DNA of 64,000 nucleotides from the sequence record PV467748.1. One strand, given 5' to 3'. A program made the translations under genes and the position numbers. Position 1 is the stretch's first letter. Each line of letters opens with the position of its first letter. Shown here in pieces: positions 45,229 through 55,990 of the stretch. This stretch comes from a phage. The notes below the pieces were generated by a model. That model was not told the origin of the DNA and did not search any database. It saw only the letters and a program-made list of their open reading frames with translations.

Positions 45229-45236
45229 TATAAATA
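45229..45236 (+). promoter_or_regulatory. T4 late promoter TATAAATA upstream of gene 34
   Basis: Exact TATAAATA about 33 nt upstream of gene 34 ATG. Confidence 0.6.
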
Positions 45237-45268: not shown

Positions 45269-48200
45269 ATGGCCGATATTTTAAAACCTGCATTCCGTGC
45301 TACATCCGGACTCGATGCTGCGGGCGAGAAAGTTATCAATGTTGCCAAAGCCGATTACAATGTATTAGATGATGGCGTCAACGTTGAATTCTTTATAGAT
45401 GAGAACACCATCCAGGCGTACGACGAGACGCGCGGATATAAGAAAGGGTTTGCAGTAATCCATGACCAACGTATCTGGGTTGCTCAACGTGATATCGATG
45501 CTCCAGCAGGAACCTTTGTACCTGGTTATTGGACTGCTACCCGTACTGACCCTAAATGGATTACTGTAGCATCTCCTACACGCCAGCTGGCTTCCGGTGA
45601 ATATATTGCTGTGGATTCCGCTGCTAGCTTTACCACATTTACCCTGCCTCCTAACCCTACTGATGGCGATACCGTTGTAATTAAAGATATCGGCGGTCGT
45701 GTAGGTTATAATGAAATCAAGGTCCAATCTAGTTCTGCTCCAGGTGGTGGTAATCAGAAAATTGTCCGTTTTGGTAACCAGTTCACTGAGACCTTAATTA
45801 CGAAGCCTTTTTCCTATAATATGATTATCTTTGCCAACCGTCTTTGGCATTTCTGGGAATCAGGTAATGAAGAACGTGGTATCCGTGTAGAACCTAACAC
45901 CGCTCAGTTCCAAGCTCAAGCAGGCGATAATGTTCTCCGTCGTTATACTTCAGGTGCAGTAATTAAGTTTACTCTTCCTAAGTATGCGAACCAAGGTGAT
46001 ATTATTAAAACCGCTGATATCGATGGTTTAGGAAGTAAGTTCCACTTAATTGTTGAAACGTTTGATGCTTCATCTTCATTAGGTAAGCTTGGTCAGCATA
46101 GCATGGAATTCCGTACCTCCGGCGATGGATTCTTTGTTTATAACTCTACCGAAAAATTATGGTACGTTTGGGACGGCGACCTTAAAACCCGTTTACGTGT
46201 AATTCGCGATGATGTTGAGCTCTTGGCTAACGAAAGTGTTATTGTTTTTGGCCCTAATAATACAACACCACAGACGATTAATATCACATTACCTACAGGC
46301 GTAGCCCAGGGTGATGTCGTTAAGATTGCTCTGAACTATCTCCGTAAAGCTCAGACGGTAAATATTAAGGCTGCCGTAGGAGATAAAATAGCTTCTTCGG
46401 TTCAATTGCTCCAGTTCCCTAAACGTTCTGAATATCCGCCAGATACTGAATGGGTTCTGAATGACGTATTGACCTTCAATGGCAACTTAAGTTATACTCC
46501 GGTTATTGAACTTAGCTATATAGAAGACACCGCTACAGGTGGCAAATATTGGGTTGTTGCTCAGAACGTTCCTACTATAGAACGTGTGGATTCTAAGGAC
46601 GATTTAACCCGTGCTCGCCTCGGTGTTATTGCTCTGGCGTCACAAACGCAAGCAAACGTCGACCATGAAAATAATCCTGAAAAAGAACTTGCAATTACTC
46701 CACAGACTTTAGCTAATCGTGTAGCGACTGAATCTCGTCGTGGTATTGCTCGTATTGCTACTACTGCTCAGGTGAACCAGGATACAACCTTCGCATTCCA
46801 GGACGATTTAATTATTTCTCCTAAGAAATTAAACGAACGTACTGCAACCGAAACTCGTCGTGGTGTTGCTGAAATTGCTACGCAAGTTGAAACTGATGCC
46901 GGCATAGATGATACCACAATCATCACTCCTAAGAAGCTACAAGCGCGCCAGGGTTCGGAAAGTCTTTCAGGTATTGTAACATATACCTCTACCGTAGGAA
47001 CCACTCCTGCGACTGCTAGAGACACTGTAGGTACTAACGTTTATAATAAGAACGTAGGCAATTTGGTTATTTCTCCTAAAGCACTTGACCAGTATAAAGC
47101 TACTCAAGTTCAACAGGGTACAGTATATCTTTCTAACCAATCCGAAGTTAACGCAGGTCAATCTGCAAGTGGATTTGCTAACAGTGCTGTTTCTCCTGAA
47201 ACATTACATGCTCGTGTGGCTCTTGATACTCGTACAGGGTTAATTGAAATTGCTACGCAACAGGAAACTGATACCGGAACAGATTATACTCGTGCAGTAA
47301 CGCCTAAAACGTTAAATGATAGGAAAGCTACGGAAGGATTGACTGGTATTGCTAGAATTGCAACACAGGTAGAATTTGATGCAGGTACGTTAGATAATGT
47401 TATTTCAACTCCGTTGAAAATTAAAACAAGATTTAATGATACTGCTAGAACTTCTGTCTCAGCAGCCAGTGGTTTGGTTGAATCAGGAACCTTATGGAAC
47501 CATTATACACTAGATATTAGAGAAGCAAATGAGACTCAACGTGGTACTGCTCGCCTGGCGACCCAGACCGAAGTCAACGTTGGTACCGATGATAAAACCA
47601 TCATCACTCCTTTGAAATTACACTCTAAAAAATCTACTGAAAGCTCTGAAGGTATTATTCGTGTTGCAACGAATACCGAAACAACCGCAGGAACTTCTAA
47701 AGTTTTGGCTGTAAGCCCTTCTGGTTTAAAATATGTAGTACAGACCGAAACCACTTGGGAAGCTACTGCACTTCGTCGTGGATTTGTTAAACTAACCGAA
47801 GGTGCTTTAACCCATTCAGGAAATAAAGTTACCGGTTCCGGTGTTAAATTTAACTCAGGTACAGGCCTTTATGAGAACGATGATACTGTTCTGAACGCAG
47901 CGAACTATCCTAAAACGGGTTATGCGGTTTCATCTTACGAGATGAATAAAACCTTACAGAACTTTTTACCTATAAATGCTACGGCTGTGAACTCCGAGAA
48001 ATTAGATGGCCTAGATTCACTCCAGTTCATTCGTAGAGACGTCGACCAAACGGTTAATGGTTCTTTAACCCTGGCCAAACAATTGAACCTGGCGGCTCCT
48101 CTGGTGTCTTCTAGTACTGCTAATATTACCGGCAACACTATTTTAGGTTCTCTGGAAGTAACCGGGAATTCTACTTTTAAAAATGATGTATCTGTTAGCT

Positions 48201-49312
48201 CAGGTAAATCTATTAAATTTGTAGGACCCCAGTCTGGCGCAGGTTCTTGGGATTCTCAGGCAACTAATTTTGCACCTATTTTCTCTGAGATAAATTCTAC
48301 TGTTGATGCTAGTTATCACCCTATTGTTAAGCAACGACTAGGGCAAGGTACTTTCTCTTTAGGTACTTTAAATGACGGCTCCGGCGATTTTAAAATCCAT
48401 CATATCAGCGGTGCTTTAAAATCTTCCTACTGGACCTTTAATACGACTGGTGACTTTGCTGTTAATAGTGGTTCCATTAGTATTTCTAAGAATGCTAATA
48501 TCACAGGTATAACCACTTCTAACGGTGTTTCTACAACCACACTAAATGCTTCTGCTCTGTCTTCATTACAAAACGTAACTACTTCAGGTACTATCGTTTC
48601 TACCGGACAGGTATCGGCAAATAATGGTTTGGTTGCTCAAAAATACGTTCGTTCTGTTGGTGTTAAACCTACATTAGCATCCCAGGCCCCTACTGCAGAA
48701 ACAGTTGGCTTCTGGTCTGTTGATATCAATGATTCGGCTACATTTAACCTGTTCCCTGGTTATTGGACGATGAAAACTAAACGCCAGGTTAATATCGATA
48801 CGGTCCAAACTAAACCTGCCGGTGTTTCTGATGAGATATGGAATGCTTCTGGTTGGTTGACAGAAACGGGTGCATTTAGTTCCCCGGCCATTCGTTATCG
48901 TAACGAAGACGGTAGTTTTGGTGACGAGGTTCTCGGTACATCAGGTCAGAAATTACGTGGTACTTGGTTTGATTATTCTGTTCGTGATAAGGAAGTTAAA
49001 TATCCTGGTACGTTAACTCAGTTTGGTAATACTCTGGATTCATGTTATCAGGATTGGGTGTGCTATCCTACAGGATTGAATGGCGGTACTATTCGTTATA
49101 CTCGCACCTGGCAGAAGAATAAAAACGCATGGACTACGTTCTCTATGGTCTATACCGCAGATAACCCTCCTTCTGCGGAAGAGGTTGGTGCATTACCTGC
49201 TGATAACGCTACAATGGGTAACATTACAATCCTTGATTGGTTACGTATTGGTAACGTTCGTATTATTCCTGACCCGGTCACTAAATCCGTTAAGTTTGAG
49301 TGGATTGAATAA
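45269..49312 (+). CDS. 34: Long tail fibre proximal subunit gp34
   Basis: 1347 aa; long collinear similarity to recalled T4 gp34 (KIASSVQLLQFPKRSEYPP, TATETRRGIARIATTAQVNQ, FGNTLDSCYQDW, C-term DPV.KSVKFEWIE). Confidence 0.95.
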   Translation: MADILKPAFRATSGLDAAGEKVINVAKADYNVLDDGVNVEFFIDENTIQAYDETRGYKKGFAVIHDQRIWVAQRDIDAPAGTFVPGYWTATRTDPKWITVASPTRQLASGEYIAVDSAASFTTFTLPPNPTDGDTVVIKDIGGRVGYNEIKVQSSSAPGGGNQKIVRFGNQFTETLITKPFSYNMIIFANRLWHFWESGNEERGIRVEPNTAQFQAQAGDNVLRRYTSGAVIKFTLPKYANQGDIIKTADIDGLGSKFHLIVETFDASSSLGKLGQHSMEFRTSGDGFFVYNSTEKLWYVWDGDLKTRLRVIRDDVELLANESVIVFGPNNTTPQTINITLPTGVAQGDVVKIALNYLRKAQTVNIKAAVGDKIASSVQLLQFPKRSEYPPDTEWVLNDVLTFNGNLSYTPVIELSYIEDTATGGKYWVVAQNVPTIERVDSKDDLTRARLGVIALASQTQANVDHENNPEKELAITPQTLANRVATESRRGIARIATTAQVNQDTTFAFQDDLIISPKKLNERTATETRRGVAEIATQVETDAGIDDTTIITPKKLQARQGSESLSGIVTYTSTVGTTPATARDTVGTNVYNKNVGNLVISPKALDQYKATQVQQGTVYLSNQSEVNAGQSASGFANSAVSPETLHARVALDTRTGLIEIATQQETDTGTDYTRAVTPKTLNDRKATEGLTGIARIATQVEFDAGTLDNVISTPLKIKTRFNDTARTSVSAASGLVESGTLWNHYTLDIREANETQRGTARLATQTEVNVGTDDKTIITPLKLHSKKSTESSEGIIRVATNTETTAGTSKVLAVSPSGLKYVVQTETTWEATALRRGFVKLTEGALTHSGNKVTGSGVKFNSGTGLYENDDTVLNAANYPKTGYAVSSYEMNKTLQNFLPINATAVNSEKLDGLDSLQFIRRDVDQTVNGSLTLAKQLNLAAPLVSSSTANITGNTILGSLEVTGNSTFKNDVSVSSGKSIKFVGPQSGAGSWDSQATNFAPIFSEINSTVDASYHPIVKQRLGQGTFSLGTLNDGSGDFKIHHISGALKSSYWTFNTTGDFAVNSGSISISKNANITGITTSNGVSTTTLNASALSSLQNVTTSGTIVSTGQVSANNGLVAQKYVRSVGVKPTLASQAPTAETVGFWSVDINDSATFNLFPGYWTMKTKRQVNIDTVQTKPAGVSDEIWNASGWLTETGAFSSPAIRYRNEDGSFGDEVLGTSGQKLRGTWFDYSVRDKEVKYPGTLTQFGNTLDSCYQDWVCYPTGLNGGTIRYTRTWQKNKNAWTTFSMVYTADNPPSAEEVGALPADNATMGNITILDWLRIGNVRIIPDPVTKSVKFEWIE

Positions 49313-49320
49313 GAGGTATT

Positions 49321-50442
49321 ATGGAAAGATTTATGGCAGAATTTGGACAAGGATATGTCCAGGTTCCTACATTATCTGAAAACAATGCTGTAAGGTATAA
49401 ACTTAGTATAGCTGGTAGTTGTACTAAGTCTACCACAAAAGCATATGTTAAATTTCAAGATGGGAACTTCGGTTCCCAGAATTTTCAAAATGGATTAAAC
49501 CTTATAGAAATCGATGTTAGTGCCGAACCTAAAATCGTTGCTAACAAAACTTATAGTTTTACAAAAGATTTTGATGTTATTTCTGAAGCTTTTATAACGT
49601 ATATAAACTCTATACCAGCCAATAGAATAGTTTGTTTAGTATCTTCCGGTAGATTAAATGCTTCACAAAAACTTATCGATTGGTTCCGTGCAGCAGGAAG
49701 TACTGCATTTCCATCTAAATGGCTAATAGACCGCTTCGAGCCGTCTTATTCAGCGTTTTATGTTTCAGGAAGGAATGCTATAGTAATGGAACATGTGCTT
49801 TATAATGATGGGGTATTGGTCGAAGATGTTTCTACCCCATTAGAAGTCGTTTTTGACGACATCAGTGATGTCGGTGGTACAGGATATCCTGTCAGAATTG
49901 TTGAAGACGAAAGCACTTATCTAAGCAATGATGGAGATGAAATTAAGCGATTTCCTACCGAATCTCCTACTACCCCATTAACAGATTATAATATGAAACC
50001 AGGTGAATTCTTTTACCTTAAGTTTCAATTAATGTGCGACCAGGCTTTAAAAGACGTCGGGACTTCTCAGATGTCTGTTAGATTTTTTAATGCCTCAGGT
50101 GCTTTAACTGGGACAGTTAATATGGACGTTCCTTCCAACGTTCCTGCCGGTGCATGGATGACATTTGAACGGGTAGTAATGGTTCCTGAAGGTACTACAG
50201 ACTTTACCCTTTATGCCAGAAAAACAGCTTCGGCTGGCCAAGGTGGAGTTCGAAATGTTATGTTCGGTGAGATATCTGAATCAGAACCTCAGCCAAAACC
50301 TGCCGAATTTGGTGTTAACGGTATTCGTATGAACTTTGGTACAGAAACTAAAAATATGGGTACTACCATAGCCCAGCTATATGATAAAACAGGCACTAAA
50401 CCTGGACAGGTTTGGGTCGCCGAATTTAGAGAAAAATATTAA
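49321..50442 (+). CDS. 35: Long tail fibre hinge protein gp35
   Basis: 373 aa (T4 372 aa); position. Confidence 0.8.
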   Translation: MERFMAEFGQGYVQVPTLSENNAVRYKLSIAGSCTKSTTKAYVKFQDGNFGSQNFQNGLNLIEIDVSAEPKIVANKTYSFTKDFDVISEAFITYINSIPANRIVCLVSSGRLNASQKLIDWFRAAGSTAFPSKWLIDRFEPSYSAFYVSGRNAIVMEHVLYNDGVLVEDVSTPLEVVFDDISDVGGTGYPVRIVEDESTYLSNDGDEIKRFPTESPTTPLTDYNMKPGEFFYLKFQLMCDQALKDVGTSQMSVRFFNASGALTGTVNMDVPSNVPAGAWMTFERVVMVPEGTTDFTLYARKTASAGQGGVRNVMFGEISESEPQPKPAEFGVNGIRMNFGTETKNMGTTIAQLYDKTGTKPGQVWVAEFREKY

Positions 50443-50517: not shown

Positions 50518-51165
50518 ATGGCAGATTTAAAATTAGGTTCTACAGCAGGAGGTTCGGTATTATGGCACCAAGGTAATTTCCCCTTAACGCCTGTATCAAA
50601 TGACCTTCTTTACAAAACATATAAGGTTTATACCGAGTATAATAAACCACAAGCAGCTGATAATGATTTCGTTTCAAAAGCTAACGGTGGTAATTATAAG
50701 AATACCGTGTATTTTGAAAAAGGTTTGACCTTTAATGATACTAATGGATATGGTATTAAATTAGGAGCAAGAACTGGCGGAGCACCGTTCACAGCTTCTT
50801 TCCGTATTAAAGGCGCTTTTGGATATGAAACGGAAGATGGTACACCGTTCGTTATATTTGACCCGAATACGGCAGTTGGTGCTAAACGCCTCACAGTAAT
50901 GGGTGATTCATTATTCCGCCAAGTATATGATGAATCAGGTCGTGTATTCAGCCCCGGCAACACCCCTACTAAAGCTCAAGTTGGATTGTCATTAGTAGAT
51001 AACGCAAAACAGGTCCAAATAAATAATACTAATATGCAAACAATGACTGGGGTACTTGCGGCTCCTAACTTCATTTCATTAAATCCGGCCTCTGACGCAG
51101 GACATGTTCCGCGTTTCGACCAGATTGTTATTAAAGATTCTATCCAAGATTTTGGTTATTATTAA
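50518..51165 (+). CDS. 36: Long tail fibre distal connector gp36
   Basis: 215 aa (T4 221 aa); CATAAATA late-promoter variant near 50477. Confidence 0.8.
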   Translation: MADLKLGSTAGGSVLWHQGNFPLTPVSNDLLYKTYKVYTEYNKPQAADNDFVSKANGGNYKNTVYFEKGLTFNDTNGYGIKLGARTGGAPFTASFRIKGAFGYETEDGTPFVIFDPNTAVGAKRLTVMGDSLFRQVYDESGRVFSPGNTPTKAQVGLSLVDNAKQVQINNTNMQTMTGVLAAPNFISLNPASDAGHVPRFDQIVIKDSIQDFGYY

Positions 51166-51173
51166 GAGGCATT

Positions 51174-54100
51174 ATGGCTACTTTAAAACAGATACAATTT
51201 AAAAGAAGTAAAGTAGCTGGTGTACGTCCTACGCCAGCGCAGTTGGCTGAAGGCGAGCTGGCTATTAACTTAAAAGACCGTTTGTTATTTACCAAAGATG
51301 ACACTGGAGCGATTATCGACCTTGGCTTTGCTAAAGGTGGTAATATTGACGGTAACGTTATTCATAATGGTAATTACAATCAAACCGGTGATTATACCCT
51401 GAATGGTACTTTTACCCAAACTGGTGATTTTAATTTAACAGGTATTGCTCGTGTAACTCGCGATATTATTGCCGCAGGTCAGATAATGACTGAAGGTGGA
51501 GAACTTATTTCTAAGAGTACCTCAACTTCTCACCTTCGTTTCTTTGATGGCAATGACCGTGAACGTGGCATTATCTTTTCTCCTAATAATGCAGGGGCAA
51601 CCAACCAAGTAGTTAATATTCGTGTACAAGATTATTCTACCGCAAGCGAAAGCACTTATGCATTTTCAGGCGCCGGTGTATTTTCTTCTCCTGTAGTTTT
51701 TGGATGGAAATCTGTATCAACTCCCGTAATTTATACTAATAAAGTTATTACAAATGGTAAAGTTGCCGGCGATTATGATATCTATTCATTGGCCGATAAT
51801 ACCCCATTGGCAGAAAGTGAAACAGCTATTAACCATCTCCGTGTTATGCGAAATGCTGTAGGCGCGGGTATATTTCACGAAGTTAAAGATAATGACGGAA
51901 TAACCTGGTATGCTGGAGATGGATTGGACGCTTATCTTTGGTCATTTACATGGTCAGGTGGATTGAAAGCCGGTCATTCTATTTCCGTAGGCACCCCAGG
52001 TAACTCTAAAGGATATTCTGAATTAGGAAATGCTTCAATTGCTCTTGGCGATAATGACACCGGGCTAAAATGGCATCAGGATGGATATTTCCATACAGTA
52101 AACAACGGCACGAGAACTTTCCTGTACAGCCCAGCAGAAACCACCAGTCTTAGAAAAATGGTTATGGGGTATTCTACTAACGGAACCGATTTAACTACTC
52201 CTCCTACTGAAAACTATGCTCTTGCTACTGTTGTTACTTACCATGATAATAACGCGTACGGTGACGGTCAAACTCTTTTAGGGTATTATCAAGGCGGTAA
52301 TTATCACCACTATTTCCGTGGTAAGGGCACTACAAACGTTAACACCGCTGGCGGTTTGTTAGTTACTCCTGGTAATATTGATGTTGTAGGTGGTTCGGTT
52401 AATATTGATGGTCGCAACAACGCTTCGACTCTTTTGTTCAGAGGAAATACAACAGGAAGTAGTTCAGTTGATAATATGACTATCAGCGTTTGGGGTAACA
52501 CCTTTACTAATGTCGCCGGTGACCGCAAAAACGTAATGGAAATATCTGATGCCGTTGGTTGGATGCATTATATTCAGCGTAAGACTGATAATACAGTCGA
52601 AGCCCATTTAAATGGCGGCATGAATGTAAACGAAAGCATCAACGTCGGCAGAGAAGTTAACGCCTCCGGCACTATTGCTGGTAATGCTGTCAATGCCCTT
52701 AGAATTTGGAACGACGACTACGGTGCCATTTTCCGCCGTTCAGAAAACAGTCTTCATATTATTCCTACTGCTTTTGGTGAAGGTAAAACCGGTGATATTG
52801 GCCCACTTCGTCCATTTAGTTTGGCTTTAGATACAGGTAAGGTCGTTATTCCTGACCTAGATTTGAGTTATGCTTCTTTTGCAGCAAACGGCTATATTAA
52901 ATTCGGTGGCCATGGTGCAGGCGCTGGTGGTTATGATATTCAATATGCACAAGCAGCTCCTGTTTTCCAAGAAATTGACGATGACGCGGTAAGTAAATAT
53001 TATCCTATTGTCAAGCAGAAATTCTTACAAGGAAAAGCTGTTTGGTCTTTAGGTACTGAAATTAATTCCGGTACTTTTGTTTTGCATCATTACAAAGAAG
53101 ACGGGACCCAAGGTCATACATCAAGATTTAATGCCGATGGTACAGTTAACTTCCCGGATAACGTACAGGTTGGTGGCGGTGAAGCTACTATTGGCAAAAA
53201 TGGTAACATCTGGTCTGATATCTGGAAAACGTTTACTTCTGCCGGTGATGTAACCAATCTTCTTGGTGCTGTCTATAGCCGTGTTTCTAAAGAAGGCGAC
53301 ACGATGACCGGCCGCTTAACTCTTAAAACCAACTCAGATGCTGTGGTTATTGATTATCCAGCAGATGAAGCGGGTTATGTTAAGGGTAAAAAAGGTGGTG
53401 CTGATAACTGGTATGTCGGTAACGGTGGTGCTGATAATGGTTTAGCCTTCTGGAGCTTCCAATCCCAAGGTGGTATTAATATTAACCCTAATGGCGAGGT
53501 TATTTTAGCCCCACAAGGTGTTGCAATGTTCAATATAAACCGCGACCGTATTCATATGAACGGTGCTAACTGGATTGCACATAAATCTGGTGCATGGGGT
53601 GACCAATGGGGTTTAGAAGCACCTTATTTCCTTGAGTTTGGTAGTGTGGGTGAAGACACTTATTATCCCATTATTAAAGGCCGATCTTTAATTAGTGGTC
53701 AGGGTTATACTACTTCTGTTGATTTAGGCATGCGTCGTACTCCACAAACATGGGGACAAGCGATAATTCGAGTAGGTAATGCCGAGGGTGGCGACGGTCC
53801 TGTAGGTATTTTCGAATTCCACTCTAGCGGTTTATTTTACGCCCCGACTTTAGTCCAGACTCCTGCCATTGGTGTTGGTACTGTTAACGGATTAGGCTCT
53901 CCTAGTATTGCTATCGGTGATAATGACACAGGATTATCACATGGTGGCGATGGACGAATTAATATGGTTGCCAATGGTATGCATATTGCATCTTGGGCTA
54001 GCTCTTACCATATCCATGAAGGTCTTTGGGATACCACTGGGGCCTTGTGGACTGAAACAGGAAGAGCTATTATTTCTTTTGGTCATTTAGTCCAACAAAA

Positions 54101-54476
54101 CGATAGCTATTCAACATTTGTTCGTGACGTTTATGTTCGTTCTGATATTCGTGTTAAAAAAGACCTTGTTAAATTTGAAAATGCTTCACAGACACTTTCA
54201 AAAATTAACGGTTACACTTATATGCAGAAACGTGGCCTAGATGAAGAAGGTAATCAGAAATGGGAACCTAACGCCGGTTTGATAGCTCAAGAAGTTCAAG
54301 CTATTTTACCAGAATTAGTTGAAGGTGACCCTGATGGTGAAGCTTTACTTCGTTTGAACTATAACGGTGTAATTGGTTTAAATACAGCTGCAATCAATGA
54401 GCATACTGCAGAAATTGCAGAATTGAAATCAGAGATTGAAGAACTTAAAGCATTAATTAAATCATTGTTAAAATAA
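51174..54476 (+). CDS. 37: Long tail fibre distal subunit gp37 with C-terminal intramolecular chaperone domain
   Basis: 1100 aa; position; C-terminal about 110 aa carries autoproteolysis-type motif SDIRVK (Ser990) and chaperone-domain-like helix. Confidence 0.85.
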
Positions 54477-54480
54477 TAAG

Positions 54481-54496
54481 AGGGGCTTCGGCCCCT
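54481..54496 (+). promoter_or_regulatory. Intercistronic hairpin aggggc-UUCG-gcccct between genes 37 and 38
   Basis: 6 bp stem with UUCG loop immediately upstream of GGAGG RBS of gene 38. Confidence 0.45.
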
Positions 54497-54507
54497 TGGA
54501 GGTTTAT

Positions 54508-55305
54508 ATGGCAGTAGCAGGACCGTGGATAGGAACTTCTGCATTAGCTAATACAGGACAAAATTGGATGGGCGGCGCTGCCCAACGATTGAGAATGGGC
54601 GCCCCGTTTTGGATGAGTAATATGAACGGTCGGTCTGTTGAAGTAATTCATACCATAACAGCAAACCATAACTTTAACGGGCAATGGTTCCGCGACCGCT
54701 GTTTTGAAGCAGGCAGCGCACCTATTGTGTTTAATATCACAGGCGATATAGTATCTTACGACCGTAATGTTCCATTGTTCTTTATGAATGCGGATACTCC
54801 AAACGAATACGTTGTTTTGAATATTCATGGTGGGGTTCATATGTGGGGCCGAGGCGGCCACGGTGGGTGGACCCATTCAGGTGGCGACGGTAACGGTCAA
54901 TGGGGTGGTGATTGTATAGTCAACCACATAGGTCATAGACTACGTATTTGGAACTATGGGGTTATCTGTGGTGGTGGCGGTGGCGGTGGTGGCATTGCGT
55001 ATCGTCCTCACTCAGGTGCTAACTGGCAAGATATCGGTGGTGGTGGTGGACGTCCATTTGGTCCTGGTGGCGGTGGTGGATACTCCGGCGGTGGTGCTTC
55101 TTATGAAAGCCCCGGCGGTGGATACAATTATGGTAACGCCCACTCAGGTCATGGCGGTGATGCTGGCGCCGCAGGCCAGAACGCATGGAATGATGGTGGT
55201 AAAGTTCTTAAAGTTGGGGCCGGCGGCGGTTCTGGGGCTGCTGTCGCCGGTTCTGCTCCTGCATGGGGAGCGACAGGTACGATTTACGGGCCTTGGCTTA
55301 GTTAA
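54508..55305 (+). CDS. 38: T2-type gp38 receptor-recognising adhesin (glycine-rich motifs)
   Basis: Start at Met5 after GGAGG RBS; conserved N-terminal attachment domain ([27 protein letters not shown]), poly-Gly motifs [22 protein letters not shown] alternating with variable segments. Confidence 0.85.
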
Positions 55306-55310
55306 GAACT

Positions 55311-55318
55311 TATAAATA
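55311..55318 (+). promoter_or_regulatory. T4 late promoter TATAAATA upstream of t
   Basis: Exact TATAAATA about 19 nt upstream of holin ATG, then AAGGAG RBS. Confidence 0.6.
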
Positions 55319-55336: not shown

Positions 55337-55990
55337 ATGGAACCAAAAGTAGGATTTTCATTATCAGACCTACTTTTTGGACTTCTTGATAGAATTTTTA
55401 AAGATACTTCTTCCGGGAAAGTAGTTTTTTCCCGGGTCCTAGTCGTGATATTATTGTTCTTTATGGCACTGGTTTGGTATAAAGGCGAGTATATTCTAAA
55501 CTTTTACAAAGAGACAACTTATGCCTCTTATACTGAAATGATTAGACAAGACCAGGACAATAGATTTAAAATTGCGGCTATCGAGCAGCTCCGAATAGTG
55601 CATTCTTCTTCAGGCGCAGACTTCACAGCAATATATTCTTTTAGACCAACCAACATGAATTATTTTGTGGATATGGTTGCTTACGAGGGTAAATTACCGG
55701 AAACGGTAGACGCAAAAAATACGGGAGGGTTTCCAATTGACAAAACGTCAGTAGAATATATGGCGGGAGTTAACGGGAACTATTTTGAATCAAGTACAGA
55801 AACTGTATTCCTTCCTACAAAGAAGAAAACACAATTCACGTATATGTTTTCATGCCCGTTTTTTAATTTGGATAACGTCTACGCCGGCTCGATATCGTTG
55901 TACTGGTATGATATCAAACCGGATTTAGGATTTCCTAGACTTTCGTCTATGTGCGGTCAAGCCGGAAGGACATTAGGTCGAACTCGTTAA
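55337..55990 (+). CDS. t: Holin T
   Basis: 217 aa; single N-terminal TMD (VLVVILLFFMALVWY) and large periplasmic domain; collinear with recalled T4 T. Confidence 0.9.
   Translation: MEPKVGFSLSDLLFGLLDRIFKDTSSGKVVFSRVLVVILLFFMALVWYKGEYILNFYKETTYASYTEMIRQDQDNRFKIAAIEQLRIVHSSSGADFTAIYSFRPTNMNYFVDMVAYEGKLPETVDAKNTGGFPIDKTSVEYMAGVNGNYFESSTETVFLPTKKKTQFTYMFSCPFFNLDNVYAGSISLYWYDIKPDLGFPRLSSMCGQAGRTLGRTR

Follow-up and report, generated by a model that had tools for sequence, protein, structure and literature searches.

Genes 37 and 38 of a T-even long-tail-fibre operon as the probable self-cleaving, adhesin-capped tip of a T2-architecture fibre

Genes 37 and 38 of the phage analysed here very probably encode the distal tip of a long tail fibre of the T2 architecture, in which gp37 would cleave itself, gp38 would cap the resulting fibre end, and the cap would probably bind OmpA. 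The window, i.e., the entire 64,000-nucleotide stretch of sequence record PV467748.1 that was analysed, carries the two genes next to each other, and their products are homologous to the tip proteins of characterised phages, share conserved motifs with them, and are encoded in the same gene order. Nothing in the sequence of the 37/38 locus was found to contradict the T2-architecture model.

The region at 49-56 kb of the window is a T-even long-tail-fibre operon on the plus strand, the features of which are collected in Table 1. The gene order 34-35-36-37-38-t-asiA is common to this phage, WG01, QL01, T6, and S16; the asiA position is held here by a minus-strand ORF of 91 amino acids that follows t, and the gene at that position is annotated as an anti-sigma 70 protein in WG01, QL01, T6, and S16. 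Likewise, gene 38 is situated between gene 37 and the holin gene t both here and in WG01, QL01, T2, T6, and S16, and the fibre operon is bounded downstream by the late-promoter consensus that precedes t. With respect to the source, genes for replication and nucleotide metabolism that span 24 kb of the window show approximately 93% identity to the Dhakaviruses IME08 and JS10, and on this sequence likeness the phage is classed as a Dhakavirus-like T-even coliphage. The best match to genes 37-38 is WG01 (89.8% nucleotide identity), in which the gene 37 product bears the label "long tail fiber distal subunit", and the best match to positions 54141-55305 is vB_EcoM_FB (94.1%). The loci compared throughout were those of T2, WG01, S16, FL08, vB_EcoM_FB (FB), QL01, and T6, with K3 and Ox2 left out of the set.

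Table 1. Genes, protein segments, and nucleic acid elements of the tail-fibre region, in positions of the window
Feature	Position	Strand	Size or residues	Basis or remark
Gene 34	45269-49312	+	1347 aa	
Gene 35	49321-50442	+	373 aa	
Gene 36	50518-51165	+	215 aa	
Gene 37, long tail fibre distal subunit precursor	51174-54476	+	1100 aa, 118.1 kDa	ORF
DVYVR, last strand of mature gp37	54126-54140	+	gp37 985-989	Alignment; predicted gp38-docking tip after cleavage
C-terminal intramolecular chaperone (IMC, Peptidase_S74)	54141-54473	+		Pfam E=1e-11; ends in heptad-like helix
SDIRVK, predicted autocleavage R989^S990	54141-54158	+	gp37 990-995	S74 alignment
Stem-loop GAGGGGC-UUCG-GCCCCUU, between gene 37 stop and gene 38 ribosome-binding site	54480-54497	+		RNA fold
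Gene 38 ribosome-binding site GGAGG	54498-54502	+		
Gene 38, T2/T6-type tail-fibre adhesin	54508-55305	+	265 aa, 26.9 kDa	Pfam, PDB matches
gp38 N-terminal gp37-attachment domain	54508-54624	+	gp38 1-39, Trp7/Trp20/Trp35	Pfam Gp38_N
gp38 C-terminal specificity domain	54844-55302	+	gp38 113-265	Alignments; glycine-rich motifs alternate with variable segments
gp38 HVS1			gp38 121-132	Boundaries approximated from alignment
gp38 HVS2			gp38 163-176	Boundaries approximated from alignment
gp38 HVS3			gp38 192-214	Boundaries approximated from alignment
gp38 HVS4			gp38 224-236	Boundaries approximated from alignment
gp38 poly-Gly (G8)	54970-54993	+	gp38 155-162	
gp38 poly-Gly	55036-55080	+	gp38 177-191	
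TATAAATA, T4-type late-promoter consensus upstream of holin gene t	55311-55318	+		Pattern search
Holin gene t	55337-55990	+	217 aa	Pfam Phage_holin_T 3.6e-66

The C-terminus of gp37 carries a Peptidase_S74 domain (PF13884; "chaperone of endosialidase"), which matches residues 990-1049 over model positions 1-57 of 58 with a score of 45.4 bits against a cut-off of 22 (E=1e-11). Ser990 is the first of the last 111 residues (12,306 Da) of the 1100-residue protein. The original prediction had placed a self-cleaving chaperone motif, SDIRVK with Ser990, at the head of the final 110 or so residues of gp37, followed by a helical segment, and it was borne out in each respect: the motif occupies residues 990-995, its first codon begins at nucleotide 54141, it opens the 111-residue S74 domain, and both of the strings quoted for the helical segment are present in the C-terminal fragment. 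Elsewhere in gp37, Gp34_trimer also passes its curated Pfam cut-off, as Peptidase_S74 does, and gp37_trimer is found only weakly (17.3 bits, below the cut-off of 21.7).

Structural matches point in the same direction. A match with E=1.5e-46 links the C-terminal 211 residues of gp37 to 6F45_A, the distal fibre subunit of S16, and SDIRVKKD is aligned to SDRRIKKD. When a single sequence was used, the PDB search with the gp37 C-terminus returned only 6F45_A and a weak match to MYRF, and a profile built from four gp37 C-termini retrieved the MYRF ICA domain 7DC3 (2.7e-10), the tail fibre 8JOV (1e-4), and the GA-1 structure 3GUD (0.0076). Neither the single-sequence nor the profile search of the PDB reached the chaperone structures of endosialidase and T5 pb1. 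Among the compared loci, the IMC is identical to that of WG01 and QL01 (100%), nearly so to that of FL08 (96%), and progressively more distant from those of S16 (55%) and of T6 and T2 (25-28%). The gp37 protein is a mosaic: in blocks of 100 residues it shares 86-95% identity with WG01, 66-99% with FB, and 27-87% with QL01, rising to 98-100% with these three phages across the final 100 residues.

The site of the predicted cut is defined by several alignments. SDIRVK aligns to position 1 of the Pfam S74 model, such that Ser990 and Lys995 (S-x4-K) occupy the S74 serine and lysine positions; a serine nucleophile with a lysine five residues downstream is what we take to be the Ser/Lys dyad of the S74 family. 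Since Ser990 is aligned with residue 1 of 3GUD_A, the released chaperone chain of the GA-1 neck appendage (SDERHK), the scissile bond is predicted to lie between Arg989 and Ser990. The pattern S-D-x-R-x-K was found in all of the compared loci (T2, WG01, S16, FL08, FB, QL01, and T6), reading SDIRLK in T2, SDSRLK in T6, and SDRRIK in S16. Immediately upstream, (D/N)VY(I/V)R precedes the motif in every compared locus except S16; the DVYVR of this phage is aligned with DVYIR in the fPS phages and T6, NVYIR in T2, and DLNVS in S16. Following the serine, the domain is 99-113 residues long across the compared loci.

Cleavage of gp37 has been reported for homologues. For example, the IMC of S16 gp37 (its last 113 residues) cuts itself off after trimerisation at DLNVS^SDRRIKK (PMC7917993, citing Dunne 2018 and Schulz 2010), thereby exposing the surface on which the N-terminal domain of gp38 docks through its tryptophans (PMC7917993), and in T2 and T6 gp38 caps gp37 once the latter has been cleaved (PMC3157838). 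Self-cleavage of gp37 before gp38 docks is thus the published model, and the present alignments support it for this phage. It could be argued instead that the S74 domain is a relic that does not cleave, with gp37 keeping its C-terminus and gp38 either binding elsewhere or serving in assembly only. This is very unlikely, given that Ser990 and Lys995 are both intact, that the docking model requires a new gp37 C-terminus, and that the T2/T6 and S16 homologues are reported to be cleaved (PMC3157838, PMC7917993). Moreover, the 111-residue domain is 96-100% conserved among relatives, which indicates purifying selection.

Gene 38 most likely begins at ATG 54508, 5 nt after the GGAGG of its ribosome-binding site, and is annotated likewise in WG01, FB, QL01, and FL08; the ORF lister placed the start at TTG 54496. 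Its stop codon ends at 55305. The product is recognised by the Pfam family GP38 (PF05268; E=5.7e-64, 216.4 bits against a cut-off of 25), and its residues 1-39 by Gp38_N (PF21721; E=1.5e-19, 70.1 bits against a cut-off of 25). In the PDB, gp38 matches 9V85, the receptor-binding domain of PP01 gp38 (1.2e-61), and, over its full length, 6F45_D, the receptor recognition protein of S16 (1e-48). The window, WG01, T2, and S16 all have Trp7, Trp20, and Trp35 without variation, and FL08 and T6 keep them as well; the tryptophans of the attachment domain have been described as prongs that enter pockets in gp37 (PMC7917993).

The remainder of gp38 is rich in glycine, which accounts for 25.6% of all residues and 34.6% of those in the C-terminal half. 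Motifs of the types GRGG, G8, GGGGGRP.G, GNGG, and GG..G.AV are kept in the window, WG01, FL08, T6, T2, and S16, with variable stretches between them, in keeping with the published scheme of glycine-rich motifs (GRM) and hypervariable segments (HVS) in gp38 (PMC3157838, PMC12032242). In characterised adhesins, the glycine-rich motifs of the C-terminal domain form a polyglycine-II sandwich whose hypervariable loops jut out and bind outer-membrane proteins (PMC12032242, PMC12892980), and sequence homology to the solved 6F45_D and 9V85 suggests a sandwich of the same kind in this gp38. The glycine content also explains the composition of the gene, in that local GC climbs from about 0.37-0.44 to 0.48 at gp38. 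Two further ORFs overlap the gene, one on the minus strand (54544-54876) and one in another plus-strand frame (54956-55315); both are regarded as side effects of a coding sequence rich in GGN, not as genes. Because a tblastn search with gp38 covered at most 66% of the query, its low-complexity filter masking the glycine-rich part, all full-length gp38 identities given here were taken from direct alignments.

These observations bear on what kind of gp38 the phage makes. It had been proposed that the protein combines a conserved N-terminal attachment domain with poly-glycine motifs and variable segments, as in the T2/T6 adhesins rather than the T4 chaperone. The Gp38_N match, the invariant tryptophans, and the poly-glycine runs agree with the first part of that proposal; the matches to GP38, Gp38_N, 6F45_D, and 9V85, together with the three N-terminal tryptophans and the glycine-rich motifs, uphold the second; and direct alignment with T2 and T6 recovers the shared tryptophans and motifs, with variable stretches in between. 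Several GenBank homologues, including those of T6 and UPEC07, are nevertheless labelled "distal long tail fiber assembly catalyst", as would suit an assembly chaperone of the T4 type that is absent from the virion. Such a role is exceedingly improbable: gp38 has a homologue, along its entire length, in the S16 adhesin, which is bound to the virion and whose crystal structure shows it on the tip of gp37 (6F45), and a Pfam scan at E<=0.01 recovered only the adhesin families GP38 and Gp38_N. In addition, gp37 ends in an S74 domain and not in a T4-style receptor-binding tip, and the "assembly catalyst" label is a holdover from the naming of T4 genes. By analogy with S16, PP01, T2, and T6, gp38 would instead be found at the tip of the virion fibre, where it would bind the receptor.

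Published work has described a lock-and-key pairing between subtypes of the gp37 C-terminus and the gp38 N-terminus (PMC3157838). The gp38 of this phage begins MAVAGPW...PFW, like those of S16, FL08, and WG01 and unlike those of T2 and T6 (MAxVGVPGW), and the gp37 sequence preceding the cleavage site differs from T2/T6 in step with the gp38 N-terminus, such that the co-varying ends fit the published pairing. The two genes are also joined by a putative RNA element. The stem-loop between them is predicted to fold with -16.2 kcal/mol in a 51-nt context (z=-2.1), and a hairpin occurs at the same gene 37/38 position in T2, T6, and S16, with differing stem sequences, which suggests a conserved intercistronic RNA element.

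Taken as a whole, the evidence is consistent with the following course of assembly, in which cleavage, order of docking, stoichiometry, and receptor are modelled on the homologues. gp37 would be made as a 118-kDa precursor, the C-terminal 111-residue S74 chaperone of which would aid folding of the trimeric fibre. Following trimerisation, Ser990, helped by Lys995, would cut the R989-S990 bond and the 12.3-kDa chaperone would depart, leaving a mature gp37 of 989 residues (105.9 kDa) whose new C-terminus, ending in DVYVR, would form a flat trimeric tip. On this tip a single gp38 would then dock, its N-terminal domain engaging by way of Trp7, Trp20, and Trp35. Finally, the C-terminal glycine-rich motifs of gp38 would pack as a polyglycine-II sandwich, and the protruding variable loops would bind an outer-membrane protein, most probably OmpA.

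The case for OmpA comes from the variable loops. Three of them are almost the same as those of FL08, one FL08 loop being IAYRVHSGANWKDI, and the FL08 adhesin is OmpA-dependent, belonging to a broad "type 1" group in which R165 and D217 are reported to be important (PMC12032242). Counterparts of these two residues appear to be kept in the present gp38 (within IAYR and GGDAG). Loops almost identical to those of an OmpA-dependent adhesin make OmpA the likely receptor; confidence in this is moderate, as the comparison draws on a single characterised relative (81% identity). Receptors can be switched by changing one residue in the hypervariable segments (PMC3157838).

Host range is a broader matter than receptor binding. 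The original prediction had located the host-range determinant in the gp38 variable segments, and the receptor-binding role assigned to these segments agrees with the evidence, but their exclusivity does not. Specifically, residues 41-265 of gp38 are identical to one another in WG01, FB, and QL01, and the gp37 of QL01 is only 27-67% identical to that of the window over residues 101-900. Furthermore, swapping parts of gp37 between QL01 and WG01 led to a wider host range, according to the summary of Chen 2017 that is given in PMC13517834. Because identical specificity domains are thus joined to divergent gp37 shafts, and because shaft exchanges have had an effect, host range is not set by the gp38 loops alone. 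At its extreme, this argument would have host range determined mainly by the gp37 shaft or other fibre parts, with gp38 as a generic OmpA anchor only, and the uniform gp38 residues 41-265 of these three phages alongside their mosaic gp37 proteins speak for it. This is unlikely in view of the extensive genetics and structures that place receptor binding of T2-type phages in the gp38 HVS loops (PMC3157838, PMC12032242, PMC12892980), and the two views are in any case compatible with each other. In this clade, then, the gp38 loops are probably necessary for receptor binding without being the sole determinant of host range.

The biology itself is already known. Descriptions of the T2-type arrangement of gp37 and gp38 go back to the 1980s (Drexler 1986, as cited in PMC3157838), and the phage collection holds 868 records that match gp38 and 1311 that match the IMC-containing C-terminus of gp37. 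Neither the exact gp37 nor the exact gp38 sequence is present in a collection of 15 billion proteins, which makes the allele new; it is only this precise allele and the gp37 mosaic that are novel. The gp38 specificity domain departs from the WG01/QL01/FB allele by five substitutions, and these, together with the new gp37 mosaic, might confer a receptor-loop preference or host range that is not seen in described relatives; this would be a natural case of fine-tuning inside the OmpA-type adhesin group, although such an outcome is doubtful.

The findings have little significance beyond correct annotation. The gene after 37 should read "tail fibre adhesin", not "assembly catalyst", and gp37 should carry a C-terminal, self-cleaving S74 chaperone with a predicted mature end at Arg989. 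For phage therapy or the engineering of host range, the useful elements are the module boundary at DVYVR^SD with the gp38 N-terminal subtype, and the probable OmpA receptor. Some caution is advisable in such engineering, as host range in this Dhakavirus clade also tracks mosaicism of the gp37 shaft.

Among known systems, the nearest are the Dhakaviruses WG01, QL01, and FB, which have the same gene order, a gp38 that is 95-95.5% identical (95.5% for the WG01 "tail fiber adhesin"), and a nearly identical intergenic hairpin; in WG01 and QL01 the IMC is the same 111 amino acids. These phages differ from the present one in the gp37 shaft mosaic. Relative to WG01, gp38 carries 12 substitutions: the attachment domain has five (A4, I8, T10, L13, and A32), the specificity domain has another five (N207, H215, A221, Q224, and G248), and the other two are at positions 103 and 105. 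FL08, a Tequatrovirus, has an 81% identical gp38, a 96% identical IMC, and near-identical variable loops, and its gp38 differs in the beta-helix and at the C-terminal end (GPRV vs. GPWLS).

The gp37-gp38 complex of S16 (6F45; Dunne et al. 2018) shares the S74 IMC after an SD-R-K site, the attachment domain with its tryptophan prongs, and a gp38 composed of a beta-helix and a glycine-rich specificity domain. It differs in that its IMC and gp38 are 55% and 44% identical, respectively, its gp37 is shorter (749 aa), DLNVS stands in place of DVYVR, it binds Salmonella OmpC, and its HVS loops are different. T2 and T6 (Drexler 1986, Trojet 2011) share the architecture, the VY(I/V)R^SD-R-K site, and a gp38 with five glycine-rich motifs and four variable segments, whereas their gp38 N-terminus is of another subtype (MAxVGVPGW rather than MAVAGPW), their gp38 identity is 45-52%, and the IMC of T2 is shorter (99 aa), without the terminal helix. 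Since their IMCs are only 25-28% identical to the present one, "T2-type" refers here to architecture and not to close kinship with T2. Published receptors include Tsx for T6-like adhesins and, for gp38 generally, OmpF (PMC3157838, PMC12032242). Finally, the chaperones of endosialidases, the GA-1 neck appendage, and MYRF share the Pfam family, the N-terminal S-x4-K, and a location at the very C-terminal end of a beta-helical protein that is trimeric, and differ in their distant sequence (profile E from 2.7e-10 to 0.0076) and in their passenger domains.

The gp37 shaft (residues 101-900 of the long tail fibre distal subunit precursor) is, on pairwise identities, a recombination mosaic. Residues 601-700 share 99% identity with the corresponding protein of vB_EcoM_FB (FB) versus 87% with that of WG01, whereas across residues 701-900 the relationship is reversed, with 87-90% identity to WG01 versus 66-69% to FB. 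The shaft also carries a Gp34_trimer-type domain at residues 447-549 (Pfam, 29.8 bits). A further recombination junction is hinted at near the start of gene 38, which encodes the tail-fibre adhesin: the gp38 attachment domain (residues 1-40) is only 87.5% identical to that of WG01, with the substitutions A4G, I8V, T10S, L13V, and A32I (window residue first), compared with 97% for the remainder of gp38, despite 100% identity to WG01 in the gp37 docking region and C-terminal intramolecular chaperone.

A mechanical ORF call places the start of gene 38 at TTG 54496, within the intercistronic hairpin described below. However, ATG 54508 lies 5 nt downstream of GGAGG and corresponds to the annotated gene 38 start in relatives; gp38 is therefore assigned 265 aa rather than 269 aa. 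Two long ORFs overlapping gene 38 are presumed to be by-products of its repetitive GGN glycine codons, and not genes.

Features of the tail-fibre region and their coordinates in the window
Feature	Coordinates	Strand	Remark
Exact TATAAATA (T4 late-promoter consensus)	45229-45236	+	33 nt upstream of gene 34
gp35, fibre hinge connector	49321-50442	+	
gp37 region including the shaft	51174-54140	+	
Hairpin GAGGGGC-UUCG-GCCCCUU	54480-54497	+	GC-rich; between gene 37 stop and gene 38 Shine-Dalgarno sequence
gp38 residues 1-40	54508-54624	+	
Long ORF overlapping gene 38	54544-54876	-	ORF listing
Long ORF overlapping gene 38	54956-55315	+ (other frame)	ORF listing
Exact TATAAATA (T4 late-promoter consensus)	55311-55318	+	19 nt upstream of holin gene t

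Exact copies of TATAAATA precede gene 34 and the holin gene, and none occurs within genes 35-38, a distribution that fits with the fibre genes being co-transcribed. Nine copies occur across the whole window, a total not above chance (mean 6.8), and thus only the positions of the copies are suggestive. Residues 57-130 of gp35 yielded a marginal match to the Pfam family ILEI (28.5 bits versus a cut-off of 27; E=2.2e-6), the interleukin-like EMT inducer/FAM3 fold; the two may have a beta-sandwich fold in common, or the hit may be due to chance.

Each of the seven relatives compared (T2, WG01, S16, FL08, FB, QL01 and T6) also has a hairpin at this site between genes 37 and 38. The element may serve as a barrier to mRNA degradation or processing, or as a modulator of gene 38 translation. 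Its stems in T2 (GAGGGC/GCCCUC), T6 (GGGGC/GCCCC), and S16 (GAGCC/GGCUC) all differ from that of the window, a pattern indicating that the structure is kept while the stem sequence changes. Hairpins of the C(UUCG)G type are known from the intercistronic regions of T4 in the older literature.
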